Assembly (NCBI GenBank): GCA_965215555.1
Contig: OZ244071.1
Location: 2,517,647 to 2,581,646, forward strand
Length of the DNA: 64,000 bases
Source: Dehalococcoidia bacterium
GTDB lineage: Bacteria > Chloroflexota > Dehalococcoidia > Bin125
Direction of reading: 5' to 3'
Shown: positions 1,709-60,250 of the stretch, one piece after another
Position numbering within the stretch: the stretch's first letter is position 1
How the letters are laid out: every line of letters starts with the position of its first letter
Notes under the pieces: model-generated
The model's input: only the letters and a program-made list of their open reading frames with translations
Databases searched by the model: none
What the model was told of the DNA's origin: nothing
Program-made: the position numbers and the translations under genes

Positions 1709-4060
1709 ATGAATTGGATCGGCGGGATTCCTCGATGTGCCCCACACACTGAGACGACTTCGCGACATCACCTGTTGACCGTGTTCCTGGTGATCTTTGC
1801 GATCGCCGTCGCGATGAGCATCGCGACATCCGTCGCTCAAGCCGCCGATTCGGACACTGAGACGATCGAACTTGAACCAGGTGACAATTTCATCGGCTGG
1901 GTGGCGGAGCCGATCGCGGTCGCAGACATCTTCAAAGCGATCCCGCAGGCGGCTCTGATTTATCGCTGGGACGCCGACTCGCGGAAGTATCAACATGCGA
2001 TCCGCGAGATCGGCGGCAGTCTGGAAACGCTCCAGCCCGGCATGGCCGCGAATATACGTATCGAGGGCCAAGAGAGTGTCAAGTGGGAACGGCCGCTGAC
2101 GCCTGCCAAGGGCATGGTGCCGCTGTACTCGGGCGTGAACTGGGTCGCCTGGAACGGCCGCGATGACTGGCCGCTCGACCAGGTCGCGAGAGGTATCGGC
2201 AAGTCATTAGTCAGCATCGAAGTACGAGGTAATATCTACGAGCCTGATACTGAGTCCAACATCCCATCAATCCGTCGCGGCGACGCGCTCCGAGTCACCG
2301 TCAACCGAGACCTGCGCTGGCTGCAGCCAACGGGCATGATGCCCAAGGTGGTATTGGTCGGGGACATCCCGGAGTCACTTAACGATGAGATCATGGCTGA
2401 TATTAGAAGCGTTATGGAGTTCCTGTCCGAAACGTTCGCAATCGAGACGGATTTCTCAGGGACGACCATATTGCTGTATAGCGATATCGATGCAGCAGTC
2501 GACCACGCAGAGTCCAGCGCAGAACCGCATCTTGGCTATTCTCCAGACAGGCTTCGCGGAACCTTGGCATCCGGTCGGATTGCACAAGCACATCCATGGG
2601 GGTTTTTCATGTCTGCTTGTGGCTGGCTGACGCCGAGTCCGCCGCCATGCTACGGCCGGACGACAGAGACAATCGCTCATGAGTGGTTCCATGTGTTGCA
2701 AAGTCAGCTGTCTGCGAAGCAACGTGTGCGTAAGTCACCGGTGTGGATGGATGAGGGAGGTGCTACATGGGCAGAATGGCAATTGCCGAGCGAATTGCGT
2801 AAAGCGTCGAGTGAAGGCTCCAGACAGTGGAGACTCGATCGTGTCGCAGGAACAACTGAACCGCTAGAGAGCGCGGAAGCCGCCTACCACGGTTGGGAAT
2901 ACGATCTGGGCTCGTTGGCAGCCGATCGGTTGGTCAACCTGAGTGGCGCAGATTCACTGCTTGAGTTCTACCGCCAGCTGCATCCACAAATCATTGGCGA
3001 TGAGCGTCTCTGGGTGCGTGACCCATCTTGGCGCGAAGCGTTTGACGATGTATTCGGGCTGACCGCCGACCAGTTCTATGCGGATTATGCAGCCTGGCGG
3101 CAAACGCTGCCGAGACCTGCTCAACGGGTCAACTACGATCCAAACGACGTGAAACTCTCCGGGACAATCGAGCAAAGCGACGGCTCCCCTGCCACGGGGT
3201 TCATCTTCGTCGCCGAAGCGTATGATGGCGAGATTTCCGTCGGCATTCAGAATGCCGCGATCGTTGATGAAGCTGGGAACTTCTCTGTTTGGCTCGAGCC
3301 AGACACGATACACCGGGTCTGGGTGACACATGACAGCTGCACACTCTGGCCTACCGACAGCGGGCTGACAACTGTGCTCCCACAGCCGGGACAATACCGC
3401 GATCTCGACACTCGCAACCTACCGAGTCTGAATTTGAAGTTGCCTGAAGGCGCATGCGAGAACATACTGCGCGCTACCATCACTAGCTTGCGTGATGATC
3501 CACGCTACCTCGATGTGCTACTCATCGATGACGAGACACACAAATGGACACATGTACGGCGTCAAATCGGCGGCGCACATGTTGGTCATGCGCCACAGCC
3601 CGGGAAGTATCTGTTGCGCGTCAGGATCGGTGACTGCGGAGTGTACTACGCCAATGATGGTATGGTCGCCTTTAGACATGATGCCGATGTCCTGGAGATT
3701 GGCAAAGCCCCCGTTTCGATTGACTTCCGTGTACCGAAAAACATGTGCGTGCGACAGATTAGCGGCCGGCTTCTCAACGAAGATGGGGTGGCGGTCGGAG
3801 GAGTGTGGCTGAGCGCTTGGTACAATGGAGCCGAAAGTGGTGGCCAAACATCTGCGTCCGGAGACTTCAGCATCACCGTTCCCGAATCAGGACACTACAA
3901 GCTCCATATCTGGACCAGAGTTGCAGGATGTTACGTCAACTATGCAAATGCAGGCGCTACCACCGACTCGCGCCGAGCAACTCAAATCACTGTCGCCGAT
4001 GAGGATGTGACCGGTATCGAGTTCGTCGTGCCCAACGACCCTGCGAGCCTCTGCGAGTGA
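1709..4060 (+). CDS. Secreted HExxH zinc-metallopeptidase-like protein with C-terminal beta-sandwich (carboxypeptidase-regulatory-like) domains
   Basis: N-terminal signal/TM LLTVFLVIFAIAVAMSIATSVAQA. HEWFH (HExxH) followed about 20 aa later by MDEGG (gluzincin-like E). C-terminal SGRLLNEDGVAVGGVWL... repeats. GC about 52-58%, far below the flanks. Confidence 0.5.
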   Translation: MNWIGGIPRCAPHTETTSRHHLLTVFLVIFAIAVAMSIATSVAQAADSDTETIELEPGDNFIGWVAEPIAVADIFKAIPQAALIYRWDADSRKYQHAIREIGGSLETLQPGMAANIRIEGQESVKWERPLTPAKGMVPLYSGVNWVAWNGRDDWPLDQVARGIGKSLVSIEVRGNIYEPDTESNIPSIRRGDALRVTVNRDLRWLQPTGMMPKVVLVGDIPESLNDEIMADIRSVMEFLSETFAIETDFSGTTILLYSDIDAAVDHAESSAEPHLGYSPDRLRGTLASGRIAQAHPWGFFMSACGWLTPSPPPCYGRTTETIAHEWFHVLQSQLSAKQRVRKSPVWMDEGGATWAEWQLPSELRKASSEGSRQWRLDRVAGTTEPLESAEAAYHGWEYDLGSLAADRLVNLSGADSLLEFYRQLHPQIIGDERLWVRDPSWREAFDDVFGLTADQFYADYAAWRQTLPRPAQRVNYDPNDVKLSGTIEQSDGSPATGFIFVAEAYDGEISVGIQNAAIVDEAGNFSVWLEPDTIHRVWVTHDSCTLWPTDSGLTTVLPQPGQYRDLDTRNLPSLNLKLPEGACENILRATITSLRDDPRYLDVLLIDDETHKWTHVRRQIGGAHVGHAPQPGKYLLRVRIGDCGVYYANDGMVAFRHDADVLEIGKAPVSIDFRVPKNMCVRQISGRLLNEDGVAVGGVWLSAWYNGAESGGQTSASGDFSITVPESGHYKLHIWTRVAGCYVNYANAGATTDSRRATQITVADEDVTGIEFVVPNDPASLCE

Positions 4061-7963: not shown

Positions 7964-10360
7964 ATGACGCTTCCGCTACATGATGTCCGAGTCCTCGACC
8001 TCTCCGACCATCGAGCGGCGCTGGGCTCGCGAATGCTGGCCGACCTCGGCGCCGAGGTCACGATGGTCGAGCCGCCGGGCGGCAACTCCATCCGCCATCA
8101 GGCACCCTATGTGGACGATCAGCCTTCGCCCGAACGCAGCTACCAGCATCTCTATTTCAACGTCAACAAGCGGTCGCTGGTGCTCGACTGGCGCAGCACC
8201 GAGGGACTTGACCGGCTGCTCGAACTGGCAACGTCGGCCGACATCTTGATCGAGTCGAACCAGCCCGGCGATTTCCCGGTTGACAGTCTGCGCGAAGCAA
8301 ATCCGCACCTGATCGTGGTCTCGGCGACGCCATACGGACAGCGCGGCCCCAGGTCGGACTGGCGAGCCACGGACCTGACGACCACTGCCGCAGGCGGACT
8401 GCTGCAAGTCAGCGGTGAACGAGCGGATCCGCCTGCGCATGGCGCGGCATTTCCGGGACACACGATGACCGGGCTGACCATCGCCTCGTCGGCAATGACC
8501 GCCCTGCATGGACGCGACCGCACGCCGGGCCGACCGGGTTGCCAGATCGATATCTCGATGCAAGAAGCGACCTCATTTCAGGTCGTCCAGACCTCGAATC
8601 CAAACACCTGGCGCTGGCGAGGAGAAGCGCCCTACCGGCCGGCGCTCTCGCAGGTGATCCGCTGCGCCGATGATCGCTGGATGGGCTGCAACATCTCGCC
8701 CAACAAACTGCCCGAGTTCATCGCGATGCTGGACGAGGCGGGCGTCGAGCATGATCTCGACGCGGACAACTGGGAAGTGATCCATCGCGGTGACCGAGCC
8801 GCCTGGCAATACCTCGAGAATCCGCTACAGGATCTGGCCAAAGATCTGGCCGCCTGCTGGCCTCGGCAGAAACTGCTCGAGCGTCTCTGGGCCGCTGGCA
8901 TGCCAGCCATGCCGACCTTGCGGTTCAGCGAGTTTGCGGAGAGCGGTCACTATCCGAGCTCAGGCCAGTTCATCTCAGTCGAGACGCCAGCGGTCGGCAA
9001 GGCCTTGAGCTATTCGCGCAGCCCGCTCGATCCCGTGCAGTCGCCGCTGCCGATGCAAACTGCGCCAAGCTTGGGCGAGCACACGGACTCCTCATTCACA
9101 TCGCCTGCTGCCGGAGATAACGAAGGCCGCAGAGAGTCCGCTCCATTCCCGGACATGCCCCTCTCGGGAATTCGTGTGCTTGATCTGACCTGGGTGGCCG
9201 CGGGTCCGCTGACGACGCGTTTGATGGCCAACTTCGGCGCCGAAGTGATCAAGGTCGAGTCCAGCGGCGACCGGATGGATCCCGTGCGGGTGCAACCGGT
9301 CAAGGGCGAGTTTCAGTTCGATCTCGCCGACCTCTTCAATGAGGTCAACACGGGCAAGCAATCGCTCACTGTTAATCTCGCCGATGAACAGGGCAAGGAT
9401 CTGCTTCGCGAGCTGATTGGCCATTGCGATGTGTTGGTCAACAACTATTCTGGCGGCTCACTGGCTCGGATGGGTTTCCCCTGGGAAGACCTGCGCAAGA
9501 TCAATCCGCGATTGATCAGCGTCCACTTGCCCGGCGTCGGCGGAGATAGCCCTTGGCGACCGCTGCGCACGCTTGGCAATCTACTCAAGGCGGCAGCCGG
9601 TATGAACTTCCAGATGGGATACCCGCATCAGCCGCCGCGAGGCATGGGCGTCGCCTATCCCGATTTCACCTCACCGCATGTTGGCGTCACAGCGATCCTC
9701 GCGGCGCTGCGCGCACGCGAAGAGACAGGTGAGGGACGCGAAATCGAACTGAGCCAGCTCAGCGCGACAGTGGCGCTGCTTGGTGCGCAGTGGATGCAGT
9801 TCGACCAGCTCGGCGAAGACCTGCCGCGTCTCGGCAACTCCGATCCCAACATGTGTCCTCACGGGGTGTTTCCATCGGCGGGAGACGATCAGTGGGTCGC
9901 CATCGCGCTGGAATCGGACGATCAATGGCCGGCGTTTGCAGAGACCATCGGGCGACCGGAGTGGATCCGGGATGCATCGCTGCAGTCCGTGGCGGGTCGC
10001 AAATTGCGCAACGACGAGATCGAGGCGGCGATCAGCGAGTGGACATCGCAGCGCTCAAAGTGGGAAGCAGCCGAGGCATTGCAGACAGCCGGGATCGCAG
10101 CCAACGCCGTCGAGGATCTGCGCGACATGATGGACATCGATGAGCACTTCCGCGATCACTACCAGCGCGTTGAGCAGCCCTCGCATCCTGGATTTGGCAT
10201 CTGGATCGACGGCGCGCCGTGGGAGTTTGCGCACTTGGAAAAGCGCATGCTCGAACGTGCGCCAATGCTCGGCGAGCACAACGAGATAATTCTCAGCGGA
10301 CTGCTGGGCAAGAGCGAAGCTGCAATCGCCGAGTTGATCGCCGCTGGCGTCGTAGGCTGA
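7964..10360 (+). CDS. Tandem-domain CoA-transferase family III protein (two CaiB/BaiF modules fused)
   Basis: ATG at 7964 is in frame with ORF 7247..10360. Module 1: VRVLDLSDHRAALGSRMLADLGAEVTMVEPPGG. Module 2: GIRVLDLTWVAAGPLTTRLMANFGAEVIKVESSGD. The upstream ORF extension overlaps the divergent caiB-like gene and is rejected. Confidence 0.8.
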   Translation: MTLPLHDVRVLDLSDHRAALGSRMLADLGAEVTMVEPPGGNSIRHQAPYVDDQPSPERSYQHLYFNVNKRSLVLDWRSTEGLDRLLELATSADILIESNQPGDFPVDSLREANPHLIVVSATPYGQRGPRSDWRATDLTTTAAGGLLQVSGERADPPAHGAAFPGHTMTGLTIASSAMTALHGRDRTPGRPGCQIDISMQEATSFQVVQTSNPNTWRWRGEAPYRPALSQVIRCADDRWMGCNISPNKLPEFIAMLDEAGVEHDLDADNWEVIHRGDRAAWQYLENPLQDLAKDLAACWPRQKLLERLWAAGMPAMPTLRFSEFAESGHYPSSGQFISVETPAVGKALSYSRSPLDPVQSPLPMQTAPSLGEHTDSSFTSPAAGDNEGRRESAPFPDMPLSGIRVLDLTWVAAGPLTTRLMANFGAEVIKVESSGDRMDPVRVQPVKGEFQFDLADLFNEVNTGKQSLTVNLADEQGKDLLRELIGHCDVLVNNYSGGSLARMGFPWEDLRKINPRLISVHLPGVGGDSPWRPLRTLGNLLKAAAGMNFQMGYPHQPPRGMGVAYPDFTSPHVGVTAILAALRAREETGEGREIELSQLSATVALLGAQWMQFDQLGEDLPRLGNSDPNMCPHGVFPSAGDDQWVAIALESDDQWPAFAETIGRPEWIRDASLQSVAGRKLRNDEIEAAISEWTSQRSKWEAAEALQTAGIAANAVEDLRDMMDIDEHFRDHYQRVEQPSHPGFGIWIDGAPWEFAHLEKRMLERAPMLGEHNEIILSGLLGKSEAAIAELIAAGVVG

Positions 10361-14736: not shown

Positions 14737-14830
14737 GTGGCGTCGGCTGAGGGACGGCTGGCGAGTGTCGCCGTTGATGGGCTTAGATGTTTCGTGATTC
14801 CTGCCTGCGCAGGAATGACGGAGGGAGGCA
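14737..14830. repeat. Left copy of an about 70-90 bp direct repeat flanking the low-GC island; contains hairpin TTCCTGC-CTGC-GCAGGAA and the AATGACGG motif
   Basis: gtgtcgccgttg..ttcgtgattcctgcctgcgcaggaatgacggaggga is shared with 16990-17075. Confidence 0.6.
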
Positions 14831-16989: not shown

Positions 16990-17075
16990 GGGTGGGACGG
17001 ATGTTGGGTGTCGCCGTTGGAAGGCTTGGGTGGTTCGTGATTCCTGCCTGCGCAGGAATGACGGAGGGATGTCAG
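16990..17075. repeat. Right copy of the direct repeat flanking the low-GC island
   Basis: Shares about 70 bp with 14737-14830 and ends in a duplicated caggaatgacgg. Confidence 0.6.
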
Positions 17076-18629: not shown

Positions 18630-18727
18630 GGCCGGTTTTTGGGGACCCTCACCCTAACCCTCTCCCAGAGGGAGAGGGGATCAGAGAATGTTGGTCTCCC
18701 TTCAATGGAAGAGGGGATCAGAAAGGT

Positions 18728-19894: not shown

Positions 19895-19917
19895 CGGCCT
19901 CCCCTTGAGGGGGAGGC
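19895..19917 (+). terminator. GC-rich hairpin GGCCTCCCC-TTGA-GGGGAGGCC after the DUF1501 stop
   Basis: Perfect 9-bp stem 10 nt after the stop. Not followed by a clear U-tract. Confidence 0.35.
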
Positions 19918-19934
19918 CTTAAGGAGCTCCAGCC

Positions 19935-22854: not shown

Positions 22855-23012
22855 GACTCCCCCTCGCATGGTGAGCCGCCGAACCATTTTCTTTGCTCCC
22901 CCTCGCAGGGGGAGCTGCCGAAGGCTGAGGGGGTCCCAGCAGCGTCGATCAGGAAGTGAGATGCCACCGCATCAAGTGCGGGGCAGGCTGCGACAAGCGC
23001 GGCAATGACGAG
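22855..23012. repeat. Composite REP/MITE-like intergenic repeat (ctccccc..gggggag hairpins plus gcgacaagcgcggcaatgacg module)
   Basis: ctccccctcgcagggggagctg and gagggggtccc are shared with 29619-29738 and 30765-30895. The terminal module is shared with 38608-38667 and 60217-60250. Confidence 0.55.
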
Positions 23013-25750: not shown

Positions 25751-25849
25751 GACTCGCGCCTCCTGCCTCGCATTGCGACACTCACCGTGTGCCGCTCGGG
25801 CTAGCCCGAGCGGCACACGTGGGTGGACTCAGAATGTTGGCGCCCGTCG

Positions 25850-29618: not shown

Positions 29619-29738
29619 AAGAGCTCCCCCGTTGGGGGAGCTGGCCCGTAGGGTCTGAGGGGGCTCCCGGCAACCAGCACTGCTCGCCGAGCTGGCCCCC
29701 TCACCTGCTGCGCGGGAGCTCCCCCAACGGGGGAGCTC
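29619..29738. repeat. MITE-like element with terminal inverted repeats gagctcccccgttgggggagctggcc / ggagctcccccaacgggggagctc
   Basis: Inverted 24-26-bp ends, each itself a hairpin, flank about 65 bp containing gagggggctccc. Confidence 0.55.
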
Positions 29739-30764: not shown

Positions 30765-30895
30765 GACCTCCCCCTCTGGGGGAGGTGCCCCGAAGGGGCG
30801 GAGGGGGCCTCTCCTCGGCTAGGGTCCTACTCATCAGCCTCGTCGATGACCGGCCCCCTCAGCCGCTCCGCGACAGCTCCCCCGAAGGGGGAGCC
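30765..30895. repeat. REP/MITE-like element with hairpins cctccccctctgggggagg and agctcccccgaagggggagc
   Basis: Same family as 22855-22960 and 29619-29738. Confidence 0.5.
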
Positions 30896-32251: not shown

Positions 32252-32344
32252 GCGCTCGATTGGGCGCTCCCCTGCTCTCTAAACCTCCCCCTCCGATCCC
32301 CTCTCCCTCTGGGAGAGGGTTAGGGTGAGGGCTCTGGACCAACC

Positions 32345-35706: not shown

Positions 35707-35813
35707 TTGGCTGCTCCCTGTTCACTACACCGCGTCGGTGCCGCGGGTCACGGTCGTAAGATATGACCCAACGACCGATCACTGCTCAACATCCTCTAGG
35801 GAGGAAACCCGTT

Positions 35814-36122
35814 ATGCCGATGTACGAGTACAAGTGCCCCAGCTGCACCAACGTCTTTGATGTCCTGGCCAAGATGGGGCAGGCCCCAGAGTCACCCGAC
35901 TGCCCAGCCTGCGACGACGGAGTCGGCGACCGCGTCTTCGGCGCCGGCGTTGCGATCCACACCGGTTCCGGCGGATCCTCGTTTGACGACTTCGACATGG
36001 GAGCCATGGGAGACATGGGCATGCCCGACATGGGCGGCATGGGCATGGGAGGCCACGGTCACGACCACGGCCATAGCCACGACGACTTCGGCATGGGCGA
36101 CTTCGGCATGGACGATTTCTAG
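35814..36122 (+). CDS. FmdB-family zinc-ribbon protein with G/M/H/D-rich C-terminal tail
   Basis: MPMYEYKCPSC...CPAC zinc ribbon. GGGAGG RBS at 35798-35803. Tail GMGMGGHGHDHGHSHDDFGMGDFGMDDF. Confidence 0.7.
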   Translation: MPMYEYKCPSCTNVFDVLAKMGQAPESPDCPACDDGVGDRVFGAGVAIHTGSGGSSFDDFDMGAMGDMGMPDMGGMGMGGHGHDHGHSHDDFGMGDFGMDDF

Positions 36123-36216
36123 CCCAATCACTATCGCACAACAAACGTCCGTCATTCCCACGCTTGCCGTTGAGCCTGCCCAGGCCTGACAGGATGTCTC
36201 AGAAGTCAACTTTCCA

Positions 36217-36313
36217 GTCCCCGCTTTACGCGGGGACCTGCTCCCTTCCTGTAGGGGACTTCACCGCCAGCTATACCGTGCTGCCAGAGCGGGTCCCCGC
36301 GTAAAGCGGGGAC
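36217..36313. repeat. Structured about 97-bp element with 30-nt inverted arms (GTCCCCGC-TTTAC-GCGGGGAC / GTCCCCGC-GTAAA-GCGGGGAC), copy 1
   Basis: Near-identical arms recur at 54795-54891 with a divergent centre. Confidence 0.6.
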
Positions 36314-36405
36314 TGGGATTCAACTAACCAATGGGACGTCTGAGACACCCTCTGACGCGGGGGCAGAGAGGGTCCCGCTCGCTCCCAGCGATTGGGACGC
36401 CATAG

Positions 36406-36705
36406 ATGATCTACTTCCTCCGAGTCCAGGGCGATTCCATGTCTCCCACCCTGCAGGACGGTGATCGCCTCCTCGCACTCTCGACCAAGATGCTCTCCGT
36501 GAGACCGGGCCGCATTGTCGCCTTCCGCCGCAAGACCGACCTGTTCATCAAGCGCACCCTCAGCCGCGAGGGCGATGGCTGGTACGTCGTCGGCGACAAC
36601 CCAAGCCGCAGCACCGACAGCCGACGCTTCGGTGTTGTGCCCAACAGCCAACTGCGAGCGGTCGCGCTGCTCAAGCTCCTGCCCATGCCCCGGCTGCTTC
36701 TCTGA
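36406..36705 (+). CDS. Mini S26/S24-type serine peptidase (signal-peptidase-like; SodX-like size)
   Basis: VQGDSMSPTL...GDN...STDSR...FG motifs of the Ser/Lys-dyad peptidase fold. 99 aa. Confidence 0.5.
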   Translation: MIYFLRVQGDSMSPTLQDGDRLLALSTKMLSVRPGRIVAFRRKTDLFIKRTLSREGDGWYVVGDNPSRSTDSRRFGVVPNSQLRAVALLKLLPMPRLLL

Positions 36706-36896: not shown

Positions 36897-38525
<1,629 letters not shown>

Positions 38526-38607
38526 GTCCAACCAACGGCAACCAACAAACGGGCCGCTCCCCAGGGAGCGGCCCGTTTTGTGTGCCCTGGACCTCTCCCC
38601 CTTTGTG

Positions 38608-38717: not shown

Positions 38718-40292
38718 GTGCAGATGACTTCCAGACGCCGTGCCAAGATTGTCGCCACCCTCGGTCCGGCCTCGAGCGATCCGGCGACAGTCCTTGAACT
38801 CGTCCACGCCGGCCTCGATGTCGCCAGGATCAACTTCTCACACGGGGATGAATCCTCTTGGACCCGCGCCGTCCAGACCGTCCGCCGTGCCCAGGCCGAG
38901 ACGGGCAAGCCGGTGGCCGTTCTCGGCGATCTGCAGGGACCGAAGATTCGAATCGGCTCCGTGCCCGACGGCACCGAAATCGCGCGTGGAGAGCGAGTCG
39001 ACATTCTCGCTGGAAGCGACGCTGAAGCCGAGTATGACGGCAACTGCCTGGTCCTCAGTTGCAACTACGCGGCCCTCGTTGACGAGGTCGAGACCGGCGG
39101 GCGCGTGTACCTGCGCGACGGCGAACTCGATCTATTGGTCGAGGAGATCGTCGGCAGTCGGATCCGCACCACAGTCCGCGGCGGCGGCCTGCTGACCGCT
39201 CGGGCCGGACTACATGCGCCCGGGGCCGGCAAACAGTTGCCCGCGGTGACGGCGCGCGATCGCGAGCACATCGGCTTTGCCGTCCGTCACGGCTTCGACT
39301 TCCTCGCGCTCTCCTTCGTGCGCAGCGGCCTCGATCTGGCTGAGGCCAGCGCTGCAGTCCACGAAGCAGGCGGTGAACTCCCCTTGATCGCCAAAATCGA
39401 AACCCTCTCCGCCATTCAGGACCTGCAGGAGATCATCGCCGTCTCCGACGGCGTCATGGTCGCGCGCGGTGACCTCGGGGTGGAAGTCGGACCAGCCGAA
39501 GTGCCAGTTCTGCAGCGACAGATCATCGAAGCCGCCGGACGCGCCCTGTTGCCGGTGATCATCGCCACCCAGATGCTTGAATCGATGGTCCAGCGCCAGC
39601 GACCGACACGTGCCGAAGCCTCCGATGTCGCCAACGCTGTCTGGGACGGCGCCGACGCCCTCATGCTCTCCGCCGAGACCGCTGTCGGCCGCCACCCAGT
39701 CGAGGTCGTCGACATGATGGACGACATCATCCGCCGCGCGGAGTCCAGCGACGCTGGACGTACCGCCGTCGCCCGGCCAATCGAGCTCAAAGCCGACACC
39801 GCTCGAACCGTTGCCGTCGCCGTTGCCGCTGCCGTCGAGCAGCACCCGCAGGTTCGTGCGGTGATCGTCTTCACCATCAGCGGACGCTCAGGACGCCTGA
39901 TCTCCCACGTTCGTCTGCCGGTGCCCGTGCTCGTGCTCGCTCCTGGAGACGCAACCCTCCAGCGACTCGCGCTCATGTGGGGCGTCGAACCGCGCCATTG
40001 CCAACCGCCCGACGACATTGAGCAGATGCTCAGAGAGGTCGAACAAGCCGCAGTTGAAGCCCTCGAACTCAATCCAGGCGACCAGGTCGTACTCACCGGC
40101 GGATTCCCCCTGAGTCAGGGAGAGCCAACCAACTTCCTCAAACTCCACCAGATCCCCCCAACCCCTTCAACTTCTGGTGAAGGTGATCCTCCAGCCCCCT
40201 CTCACTCTGGTGAAGTTGATCCTCCAGTCCCCTCTCCCTCTGGTGAAGTTGACCCTCCAATCCCCTCTCCCTCTGGGAGAGGGTTAGGGTGA
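38718..40292 (+). CDS. pyk: Pyruvate kinase; the last about 40 codons run through a tandemly amplified REP-derived repeat
   Basis: KIVATLGPAS..., IAKIETLSAIQ..., MVARGDLGVE. Reading frame continues through 3 x 33-bp repeats (SGEGDPPAPSH / SGEVDPPVPSP / SGEVDPPIPSP) to the TGA inside gggTGAggg. Confidence 0.85.
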   Translation: MQMTSRRRAKIVATLGPASSDPATVLELVHAGLDVARINFSHGDESSWTRAVQTVRRAQAETGKPVAVLGDLQGPKIRIGSVPDGTEIARGERVDILAGSDAEAEYDGNCLVLSCNYAALVDEVETGGRVYLRDGELDLLVEEIVGSRIRTTVRGGGLLTARAGLHAPGAGKQLPAVTARDREHIGFAVRHGFDFLALSFVRSGLDLAEASAAVHEAGGELPLIAKIETLSAIQDLQEIIAVSDGVMVARGDLGVEVGPAEVPVLQRQIIEAAGRALLPVIIATQMLESMVQRQRPTRAEASDVANAVWDGADALMLSAETAVGRHPVEVVDMMDDIIRRAESSDAGRTAVARPIELKADTARTVAVAVAAAVEQHPQVRAVIVFTISGRSGRLISHVRLPVPVLVLAPGDATLQRLALMWGVEPRHCQPPDDIEQMLREVEQAAVEALELNPGDQVVLTGGFPLSQGEPTNFLKLHQIPPTPSTSGEGDPPAPSHSGEVDPPVPSPSGEVDPPIPSPSGRGLG

Positions 40293-46906: not shown

Positions 46907-47140
46907 CGATGCCGGACGCCCCGTGCTCGGCACGGGGCCCAGACCTCGTCGGCTGAGCGTCGATGAAACGTCACCATCAACTCACCTGCCGCGCGGGACA
47001 TCGAACATGATTCGACAGTGAACTGTCTCCCGATGCCCCGTGCTTGACACGGGGCCCAGACCTCGTCGGTTGTGCGTCGATGAAACCTCACCAACAACTC
47101 ATCTGCCGCGCGGGGCATCGAGCTTGACTCGAGTGCGCGT
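46907..47140. repeat. Two tandem copies of an about 115-bp structured repeat (each with hairpin gccccgtgc-NNN-gcacggggc and outer inverted ends gatgcc...ggcatc)
   Basis: Unit 1 at 46907-47030 and unit 2 at 47031-47140 are about 88% identical. Lies between convergent gene ends. Confidence 0.65.
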
Positions 47141-53872: not shown

Positions 53873-54769
53873 ATGGTACTTGAACAACAGGTCACACTGA
53901 TCACTGGCGCATCCCGCGGCTTCGGCCTCGCCGCTGCGGAAGAACTGATCGATCGCGGTCACCTGGTCATTGCCACCATGCGCAATCCCGATCGTGATCG
54001 CAACAACCTCTCCAACCTCGATCCAGCGGCCTACGAGATCGCCCAATGCGATGTCACCGATCCTGCCTCGATCGACGCCGCCGTCAGCGCGGGACTCAAA
54101 CGCTTCGGCCGCGTCGACGCGCTCTTCAACAACGCCGGCTACGGACTCTACGGCCCGGTCGAGGACATGTCCGACGACGAAGTCATGCGCCAGATGGACA
54201 CTAACTTCATCGGCCAGATTCGTATGGCCCGAGCTGTCTTGCCCGCGATGCGAGACCAACACCACGGCAAGATCATCAATGTCTCCTCGCTCGCCGGACG
54301 TATCGTCGCGCCGATGATGGGTCTCTACGCGGCCTCAAAGTGGGCCGTCGAAGCCATGTCCGAAGCGCTGCGCTACGAAGTCTCGCGCTGGAACGTCGAT
54401 GTCACGATCCTCGAACCAGGCATGTACGCCTCCGACTGGCAGACGACCAACCTCGATGTCGCCGAGGCCGTACGCGAGGGGCGCTCGCCGTACCAGGAAT
54501 CCGCCGAGCACGCGCTCAACACATTCCGCACCAGAGCGGCAACCCGCCCCGGCTCCCGCTCCGTCGCCACGGCCGTCGCCGACATCGTCGAACTCGAACA
54601 GCAACTCCCCATGCGCTGGCCCGTCGGAGAAGACACCATCCAAACCATCCGCCTCCGAGAAGCCATGACCGACCAGGAATGGGAAGCCCGAGTCCGAGGA
54701 GACACCAAGATCTACCGAGGAGCCTTCTTCCACGGAGTCGAGAATCCCATGGAAGACAAACCCCGCTGA
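53873..54769 (+). CDS. SDR family oxidoreductase
   Basis: TGASRGFGLAAA Rossmann motif, NNAG, YAASK catalytic motif. Confidence 0.85.
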   Translation: MVLEQQVTLITGASRGFGLAAAEELIDRGHLVIATMRNPDRDRNNLSNLDPAAYEIAQCDVTDPASIDAAVSAGLKRFGRVDALFNNAGYGLYGPVEDMSDDEVMRQMDTNFIGQIRMARAVLPAMRDQHHGKIINVSSLAGRIVAPMMGLYAASKWAVEAMSEALRYEVSRWNVDVTILEPGMYASDWQTTNLDVAEAVREGRSPYQESAEHALNTFRTRAATRPGSRSVATAVADIVELEQQLPMRWPVGEDTIQTIRLREAMTDQEWEARVRGDTKIYRGAFFHGVENPMEDKPR

Positions 54770-54794
54770 GGGTGTCTCACACGTCAGCACTCCC

Positions 54795-54891
54795 AGTCCC
54801 CGCTTCACGCGGGGACCTGCTCCTTCCCCGGTAAGATACCCACCACCAGATAGCCCGTACCGCCCGAGCGGGTCCCCGCGTGAAGCGGGGA
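54795..54891. repeat. Structured about 97-bp inverted-arm element, copy 2 (same family as 36217-36313)
   Basis: Arms agtccccgcttcacgcggggacctgctcc / gggtccccgcgtgaagcggggact. Single mirrored substitution relative to copy 1. Confidence 0.6.
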
Positions 54892-54996
54892 CTGTGTCTC
54901 ATCCAACTGGGTTAACTTGTGAGGCACCCTCCGCTGGGTCATCCTCCCCTACTTCCGTTCCTCTCGCCCCAAGGGAGAAGTACCCGACTCTCACTT

Positions 54997-55121
54997 CCAG
55001 TCCCCTCTCCCCGAGGGAGAGGGTTAGGGTGAGGGCCAGCCCAGGCCAAAGGGTGAATCCCACCAGGCAGACAGACAGAACGGGGAACCCTCACCCCAGC
55101 CCTCTCCCAGAGGGAGAGGGG
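54997..55121. repeat. Two inverted copies of the ccctctccc-NNNN-gggagaggg-ttagggtgaggg REP element
   Basis: Copy a at 54997-55035 (forward) and copy b at 55084-55121 (reverse complement). Other family members at 18644-18682 and 32297-32332, plus the tandem copies at 40174-40297. Confidence 0.6.
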
Positions 55122-58047: not shown

Positions 58048-58162
58048 CCCCGTCATTGCCGCGCTCCGACGCGGCAATCTCGCCGGAATCAGCGCTAACG
58101 CTTGCGGCTACGTGAGTTCTGGCTTCGGCGAGATACCCGCGGCATGCGCAGGTATGACGTTA
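58048..58162. repeat. REP-like element (attgccgcg-ctccga-cgcggcaat hairpin plus an inverted copy of the gtcatacc..gcgggtatctc module)
   Basis: 58128-58157 is the reverse complement (with about 2 mismatches) of 60155-60185. Confidence 0.5.
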
Positions 58163-58274
58163 TCTTGGCGCTGCTTCGCTACTCATGTGTGTGTGAAATC
58201 ATGGACTAGCCCGACCACTCCGATTGCCACTACGCTCACAACAGCAATTCAAGTGACCAACCACTGGACGACGC

Positions 58275-60051: not shown

Positions 60052-60250
60052 CCCGTCATACGCACTGAGATATCCGTCATACCCGCGCCAACAAGAGATT
60101 GTCATACACGCCCCAGCAAGCGATCGTCATACCCGCGCCAACAAGAGATCGTCATACCCGCGCTTGCCGCGGGTATCTCGCTGTATTCAGCACAACTGTC
60201 TGTGCAAGACTCGACGAGATTGCCGCGACAAGCGCGGCAATGACGGAATT
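60052..60250. repeat. Tandem array of about 25-bp units (gtcatacccgcgccaacaagagatc x4) ending in hairpins cccgcg-cttgc-cgcggg and attgccgcg-acaag-cgcggcaat, then the aatgacgg terminus
   Basis: Direct reading. Related modules occur at 58048-58162, 38608-38667 and 22959-23012. Confidence 0.6.

Follow-up and report, generated by a model that had tools for sequence, protein, structure and literature searches.

A paired hairpin repeat of Dehalococcoidia as the probable partner of an Ssn-type GIY-YIG nuclease

The inverted pair of hairpins that occurs twice in the window (the whole 64,000-nucleotide stretch of Dehalococcoidia DNA analysed here) is likely to be a REP doublet that serves as the cognate repeat of an Ssn-family nuclease, and would then be a lineage-specific member, in Chloroflexota, of the NTS/SRM type of repeat. 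This assignment was reached by comparison of sequences. The element has a defined anatomy, is spread in many copies between genes, has been copied as a unit, and is associated with a small GIY-YIG gene with which it co-varies from lineage to lineage. By analogy with members of the Ssn family that have been purified, the cognate enzyme would be expected to bind and cut single-stranded DNA that carries the repeat.

All four hairpin units in the window are 21-mers with a perfect 8-bp stem and a 5-nt loop. The left hairpin of copy 1, GTCCCCGC-TTTAC-GCGGGGAC (36217..36237), has its REP sense on the + strand and stands between the conserved head (T)CCA and the tail CCTGCTC, while the right hairpin, GTCCCCGC-GTAAA-GCGGGGAC (36293..36313), has its REP sense on the - strand. 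The spacer between them (36238..36292, + strand) is asymmetric, contains the family motif CACCRCCAGMTA...CCGTGC.GCC and lends the element a polarity. Copy 2 has the same arrangement, with the left hairpin GTCCCCGC-TTCAC-GCGGGGAC at 54796..54816, a + strand spacer of the same polarity at 54817..54871 and the right hairpin GTCCCCGC-GTGAA-GCGGGGAC at 54872..54892. The pattern GTCCCCGCNNNNNGCGGGGAC occurs four times in the window (36217, 36293, 54796 and 54872) against 0.14 occurrences expected from dinucleotide-preserving shuffles, and both doublets are a feature that did not arise by chance. Inverted pairs of 21-mer hairpins in at least two copies had already been recognised in a sequence-only reading of this DNA, which placed copy 1 correctly at 36217-36313 and copy 2 at 54795-54891, one base off its actual position of 54796-54892. 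The same reading took the two arms to be reverse complements, which is true at 97% over 30 nt in copy 1 and at 97% over 29 nt in copy 2, the arms standing 43 nt apart. It also noticed a mirrored substitution in the loops, and the pairs TTTAC/GTAAA in copy 1 and TTCAC/GTGAA in copy 2 bear this out. A second mirrored change lies in the outer arms, which read CTCAGA on both sides of copy 1 and CTCACA on both sides of copy 2.

Other parts of that description have to be revised. The centre was said to have diverged completely, but 26 of 45 positions (58%) are identical between the copies, CACCNCCAGNTA...CCGTNCNGCC is common to both, and the motif recurs across the family; its length was put at about 35 nt, whereas the gap between the extended arms as they were written is about 45 nt. 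An extent of 97 bp also proves too short, as weaker outer inverted repeats make each copy a palindrome of 180-190 nt. The full long form of copy 1 occupies 36176..36366, with outer arms at 36176-36207/36335-36366 and inner arms at 36214-36243/36287-36316, and that of copy 2 occupies 54760..54939, with outer arms at 54760-54784/54915-54939 and inner arms at 54794-54822/54866-54894. The outer arms are 78% complementary in copy 1, around the core GGATGTCTCAGAAGTC/GACGTCTGAGACACCC, and 84% complementary in copy 2; GAGGGTGTCTCA is common to the outer arms of the two copies. Positions 36186-36356 of copy 1 (171 nt) fold as one long hairpin with -99 kcal/mol as RNA (z=-10.5), and the long form of copy 2 reaches -103 kcal/mol (z=-9.9). 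Whether taken as RNA or as DNA, and on both strands, stretches of 171-173 nt from the two copies form a single long hairpin, with z of about -9 to -10.5.

The window has a G+C content of 62% and is 97.7-98.7% identical to a long-read metagenome contig in ENA. Each copy follows the 3' end of a gene on the plus strand, as had been noted from the sequence. Copy 1 begins 95 nt past the stop codon of a gene for a Zn-ribbon (PF09723) protein with a tail rich in Gly, Met and His (35763..36122, +), and is followed by a gene for a 99-aa S24-like peptidase fragment (36406..36705, +) and then by groEL (36915-38525). Copy 2 begins 27 nt past the stop codon of a short-chain dehydrogenase gene (SDR, PF00106; 53873..54769, +), its left outer arm overlapping that stop codon, and faces a convergent gene for a CMD-family protein (PF02627; 55147..55737, -). 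Three loci from related strains (L001, L003 and L004) encode a GroEL identical to that of the window at a DNA identity of about 93-95%. In all three the intergenic spacer of copy 1 (36123-36405) is replaced by different hairpin repeats (at about 9275-9500), and no empty site for copy 1 was found among them. The boundaries of insertion are therefore not readable there, and the refilling of this spacer with other repeats indicates that intergenic repeats turn over quickly. A fourth strain with an identical GroEL carries the same copy 1 element with one SNP in the spacer. The exact protein beside copy 2 is carried by only two near-identical contigs.

The window contains further repeats. Two long perfect palindromes are present at 25786-25819 and 38547-38578, with stems of 15 bp and 14 bp. 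The second of these starts 22 nt past the groEL stop codon and has AAA/TTT at its flanks, features which make it probable that it is a bidirectional terminator. A direct repeat of about 117 nt is found at 46918-47095, and its units open with the hairpin GCCCCGTGCT(C/T)G(G/A)CACGGGGC followed by CCAGACCTCGTCGG.

Pairs of CCCCGC-N5-GCGGGG were sought in a scan of one genome per species. The family of CCAGTCCCCGC-TTYAC-GCGGGGACCYGCTC with an inverted partner proved to be multicopy in Dehalococcoidia/Chloroflexi MAGs. There are at least 10 loci in OZ253456.1 and at least seven in MPNM01, and among the matches listed OZ219805.1, OZ219765.1, OZ253471.1 and DAOUHS01 are carriers also; several of the carriers are chromosomes of Dehalococcoidia MAGs, and 'Chloroflexi bacterium bin125' is another. 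The scan also returned unrelated CCCCGC hairpin pairs and, from other phyla, CRISPR arrays with CCCCGC...GCGGGG repeats. The element itself was considered as a CRISPR array or remnant and rejected, there being only two units per site and these in inverted pairs. A pattern specific for the family gave 86 stretches in JGI metagenomes, among them 16 exact units on one 740-kb contig, and no match in IMG/VR viral contigs.

The family consensus consists of the head CCCA, the stem GTCCCCGC, the loop TTYAC and the tail CYGCTC, followed by the inverted partner. In an alignment of 24 copies the arms are 92-93% identical, the spacers 48% and the flanks 35-38%; the stem is invariant, and the head CCCA and tail C-Y-GCTC are invariant or nearly so. 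The spacer has a polarity, and within a single genome the spacers and outer arms of different loci can be recognised as homologous, which implies that the doublet together with its spacer is the unit of copying. Outer arms are present in about half of the copies, and the outer motif was never found without a doublet. The metagenome loci contain 41 doublets and 44 single units, 16 of the singles lying at the ends of loci; with about half of the units single, the doublet is not obligatory. By a rough gene call, nine copies lie between convergent, 11 between tandem and one between divergent genes, a distribution typical of REPs (Di Nocera 2013). The 536-aa ORFs beside two of these copies (L019 and L031) were considered as groEL, and they are not groEL.

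Agreement between the two arms is real but imperfect. When the 24 genome copies are oriented by their spacers, the third loop position combines U-A in 11 copies, C-G in eight, U-G in four and C-A in one. The arm loops therefore agree in 19/24 genome copies (Fisher p=0.009) and in 27/34 distinct metagenome doublets (p=0.03), although the copies are related sequences and covariation figures of this kind are suggestive and not probabilities. The tail behaves differently. At one position (alignment columns 61/122; window 36240/36290 and 54819/54869) one arm has T and the other C, giving T.G or C.A mismatches in 21/24 genome copies and heterotypic pairs in 25/34 metagenome copies. This consistent difference means that the doublets are heterodimeric, as are the BIMEs of E. 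coli with their Y and Z REPs. The sequence-only reading had proposed an alignment of all copies as a test of covariation; in that alignment agreement of the loops exceeds chance, and this tail position shows the opposite behaviour. RNAalifold missed the outer stem, and the full palindrome was then supplied as the structure for the 13 long-form copies. In these, 34 cells were changed on both sides compared with 22.3 +/- 4.0 after shuffling (2/500 shuffles reached this value), a result to be read with the same caution, and 81% of cells were paired compared with 32-44% when the partner was slid. The outermost 10-15 nt vary between copies and are complementary within each copy.

It had been proposed from the sequence that the element could be an RNA with pairing arms. 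As such it might be a small stable RNA, or it might act at the 3' UTR of a transcript as a stabiliser or terminator. The very stable fold on either strand (z ~ -10), the location of most copies downstream of genes and the nature of the discordant loops, which are U.G in four copies and C.A in one, would suit such a role. Against it, no Rfam family matched at the gathering score or at E<=1, the hairpins are not followed by a T-tract, and no terminator-like site was found at the element. The orientation of the spacer relative to the flanking genes is mixed (seven same, four opposite), the sequence folds equally well as DNA, and one tail position is mismatched in 21 of the 24 copies. In addition nearly all stem pairs are invariant and so yield no informative covariation. 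A primary function as structured RNA consequently seems hardly probable, and a secondary effect at the RNA level, such as mRNA protection, would be compatible with these observations.

The sequence-only reading also considered a MITE-like unit with symmetric ends. In so far as this meant an element copied as a unit, it is sustained by the recurrence of spacers and outer arms. A classical MITE, derived from a DDE-type insertion sequence and moved through its terminal inverted repeats, might likewise show 30-nt inverted ends, a size of roughly 100-190 bp, multiple copies and a variable centre. However, no target-site duplication was found at any boundary offset tested, which argues that the element is not of this class: duplications of k>=4 occurred in at most 2/25 copies, and these two may be one locus counted twice, since copy 1 of the window and locus L002 were both in the set. 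Furthermore, each arm is a perfect hairpin in its own right, arms also occur singly or in tandem arrays of single arms, and no transposase was seen next to any copy. An origin as a MITE must on these grounds be rated as extremely improbable.

Identification of the repeat as an Ssn partner comes from the genes that it surrounds in related strains. The 100-aa proteins P0001, P0002, P0061 and P0072 (85-95% identical) belong to the single-domain PF01541 type, PF01541 being the only domain found in P0001. At six loci (L029, L118 and L128-L131) the gene for this GIY-YIG protein (3448-3747 in L029, 4001-4303 in L118 and 2501-2803 in L128-L131) lies between an imuB-like gene (PF00817) and dnaE2, with the family repeat on both sides. 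The 100-aa ORF of L029 is surrounded by two doublets and several extra units, and downstream of the gene in L128 at least 20 single REP units follow one another in tandem every 60 bp (2821-3962), an array on which a 378-aa gene has been annotated that is almost certainly spurious. A seventh locus, on the independent metagenome contig L162, places a doublet 21 nt from a gene that is 96% identical, the other side being lost to the end of the contig. There is no ssn gene in the 64-kb window; the pairing of gene and repeat is seen in sister strains, among them contigs from the same ENA sample. That the gene in related strains is adjoined by exactly this repeat is the decisive evidence for an Ssn partnership.

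Placement of the gene in an error-prone polymerase cassette in six strains hints at some coupling to DNA-damage tolerance. One chromosome-length contig carries two ssn-like paralogues. In a further paralogue, P0018 (L124 3001-3309), which comes from the sample of the window's closest contig, Cys replaces the second GIY-YIG tyrosine, so that LYVG becomes LCVG. It has been reported for SsnA that mutation of the conserved GIY-YIG tyrosines abolishes cutting and leaves binding intact.

Among more distant homologues the sequence of the hairpin changes together with the protein. The homologue in L119, which stands in another context, is flanked by the hairpins GTCCCTGC/GCAGGGAC with head and tail unchanged. 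That in L123 is flanked by arrays of GCCCCTGA + GTCCCCGA heterodimers, those in L120-122 and L124 by the hairpin ACCCCCGC-ATGC-GCGGGGGA, and that in L125, from an alphaproteobacterium, by doublets of CGTC-ACTCCCGC-GAAA-GCGGGAGT-CCA, which match the published SRM motif. The protein of L125, P0027, shares 52% identity with P0001 (E=4e-21), and the catalytic Tyr, Arg, Glu and Asn of GIY-YIG enzymes are conserved across the homologue set. NCBIfam has no specific model for this nuclease, and the matches in the PDB are only distant UPF0213 GIY-YIG relatives. The 100-aa protein may thus be placed in the Ssn family by proxy, through P0027 and the SRM-matching flanks of its gene.

Small single-domain GIY-YIG proteins of the Ssn family (CDD cd10448) have been characterised as site-specific single-stranded DNA nucleases (Chenal et al. 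2025 Nat Commun, PMC11893778). Their genes are flanked by hairpin repeats of their own, the NTS CGTCATTCCCGCGMAVGCGGGAATCYRG in Neisseria and 'Ssn-related motifs' (SRMs) elsewhere, which can be scattered through a genome in as many as hundreds of copies. Four homologues were purified, and each cut single-stranded DNA a few nucleotides away from its own repeat, on the 5' side and in one orientation only; in N. meningitidis this cutting limits transformation by repeat-bearing DNA. The authors pointed to a likeness with RAYT/REP systems and left the matter of mobility open (PMC11893778). The Chloroflexota family resembles NTS/SRM-Ssn pairs in its 8-bp stem and 4-5-nt loop, in the non-palindromic flanks which orient the repeat, in its dispersed intergenic copies, in the enclosure of a GIY-YIG gene for about 100 aa by its own repeat on both sides, and in the co-variation of repeat and protein between lineages. 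The stem core xTxCCCGC and the tail C-TG resemble the NTS consensus CGTC-ATTCCCGC-GMAV-GCGGGAAT-CYRG. On the other hand, the head of the family is CCCA instead of CGTC, its host belongs to Chloroflexota, a phylum that the main text of PMC11893778 does not mention, and many of its copies form doublets around a conserved spacer, enclosed in turn by a longer palindrome. Its ssn gene, known here from sequence, lies within an imuB-dnaE2 cassette.

The published SRM search sequence, HGTCWYN(0-2)YYVSBRHN(0-5)WNVSBRGN(0-2)RNCYNB, matches the NTS consensus and the repeats of L125. Neither arm of the element matches it, the comparison failing at the W after GTC, and the mismatch is explained by the head CCCA in place of CGTC. 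This pattern also misses clear CGTC-tagged hairpins in the window, which shows it to be narrow, and a recognition motif that escapes the search probably means that Ssn-repeat pairs have been under-counted. The CGTC-tagged REPs for which Di Nocera, De Gregorio & Rocco found no dedicated transposase (2013, PMC3733652) offer a second comparison. They too have a stem of 8-9 bp, a 4-5-nt loop and a short tail; head-outward (HH) dimers, which tend to have conserved spacers, predominate among them, some dimers lie within longer palindromes, and most copies are found between tandem or convergent genes. They differ in having the unpaired tag CGTC (TGTC/CCTC), which the family lacks, the GTC of its ..AGTC.. 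being base-paired.

Likeness is also evident to REPINs and their RAYT transposases (Bertels & Rainey 2011, PMC3116915), in which two inverted REPs and a spacer form one hairpin, the doublet is what is copied, the arms agree at variable positions, and the repeats surround a nuclease gene that is present once and inherited vertically. It could be argued that the element is simply a classical REPIN, mobilised by a RAYT (an HUH-Y1 transposase) encoded elsewhere in the genome. Its inverted REPs stand about 76 nt apart and fold into one long hairpin, the loops agree, the copies are multiple and intergenic, and REPs of the GTAG type are known in Chloroflexi, from Thermomicrobium roseum (Di Nocera 2013, PMC3733652). 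Yet the gene embedded in the family repeat encodes a GIY-YIG nuclease and not a Y1 transposase, and PF01797 was not found among the called genes of the fetched loci. The tag GTAG (GYAG/GTRG) is likewise absent, the stem being preceded by the head (T/C)CCA. We therefore regard a RAYT-driven REPIN as improbable and favour recognition by an Ssn nuclease.

A model of such recognition can be suggested from the anatomy of the repeat. Each 21-mer would fold into its 8-bp/5-nt hairpin when the DNA becomes single-stranded. The small single-domain Ssn protein would then recognise the hairpin along with its flanking head CCCA and tail CYGCTC, and would do so in a single orientation, the predicted single-stranded target of a P0061/P0001-type protein being TCCCAGTCCCCGCTTTACGCGGGGACCTGCTC. 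By analogy with N. meningitidis SsnA, the single strand may be nicked a few nucleotides away from the hairpin, on its 5' side, and in a doublet each strand would contain one such recognisable site. Doublet and spacer, joined in roughly half of copies by the outer palindrome, would be duplicated around the genome as one unit, and the copies would settle mainly at the 3' ends of genes. As a head-outward doublet has only one cleavable hairpin per strand, simple excision of a single strand by Ssn is not obviously possible.

A bolder proposal, which we consider unlikely as things stand, is that the doublet, spacer and outer palindrome constitute a self-propagating, REPIN-like replicator that spreads by means of Ssn instead of an HUH transposase and is coupled to the SOS response. 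Copying through a fold-back single-strand intermediate would keep the arms complementary. Such an intermediate could explain both the mirrored substitutions and the outer arms that are specific to each copy and still complementary within it, and the location of ssn between imuB and dnaE2 might couple its activity to the SOS mutagenesis cassette. If the proposal is correct, it would represent a second and mechanistically independent route to elements of the REPIN type.

Recognition of the repeat as the probable partner of an Ssn enzyme would extend this association of nuclease and hairpin repeat to Chloroflexota. It would also suggest that REPIN-like doublets which evolve as units can arise around a nuclease that is not of the HUH class. 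The position of ssn in the imuB-dnaE2 cassette gives a hint that the enzyme may act on single-stranded DNA exposed during damage tolerance. At least four co-varying pairs of protein and hairpin can be considered candidate specificities for the development of single-strand DNA tools. For annotation, the repeat would account for hypervariable intergenic spacers as well as for the spurious 378-aa ORF on the array.

Several other hairpin families are present in the same region. Separate CGTC-tagged, NTS-like hairpins occur in the window at 14797-14816, 17040-17059, 58051-58085, about 58129-58165 and 60150-60245, with half-sites at 60075 and 60125 and CGTCATTCCCACG at 36150. Examples are CGTC-ATTCCTGC-GCAG-GCAGGAAT and CGTC-ATACCCGCG-CTTGC-CGCGGGTAT-CTCG. 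They include an inverted doublet (60150-60245) and an identical pair 2.2 kb apart, and these are the hairpins that the published SRM pattern misses. A different family has the form (A/G)GCTCCCCC-N3-GGGGGAGC(T/C) followed by GCC..GAAGG..GAGGGGG, and is found at 29622-29738, 30766-30894, 19896-19918 and 22895-22915. It too forms inverted doublets, the loops of the 29622/29716 pair being mirrored as GTT/AAC, and related units fill the copy 1 spacer in L001 and L004. A third family, CCCTCTCCC-N3-GGGAGAGGG followed by TTAGGGTGAGGG, lies at 18658-18678, 32299-32319, 40263-40283 and 55003-55120, with one inverted doublet directly beside copy 2 that begins with a leader, CACTTCCAGTCCCC, shared with the main repeat family. 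Alphaproteobacterial loci (L008, L033, L034, L040, L063, L084, L098 and L109 from Pannonibacter, and L069, L117 and L105) carry inverted doublets of GTCATCCCCGC-CTTGT-GCGGGGATC. These doublets probably represent a further CGTC-like repeat family of the Ssn type, and those 8-kb loci contain no GIY-YIG gene.
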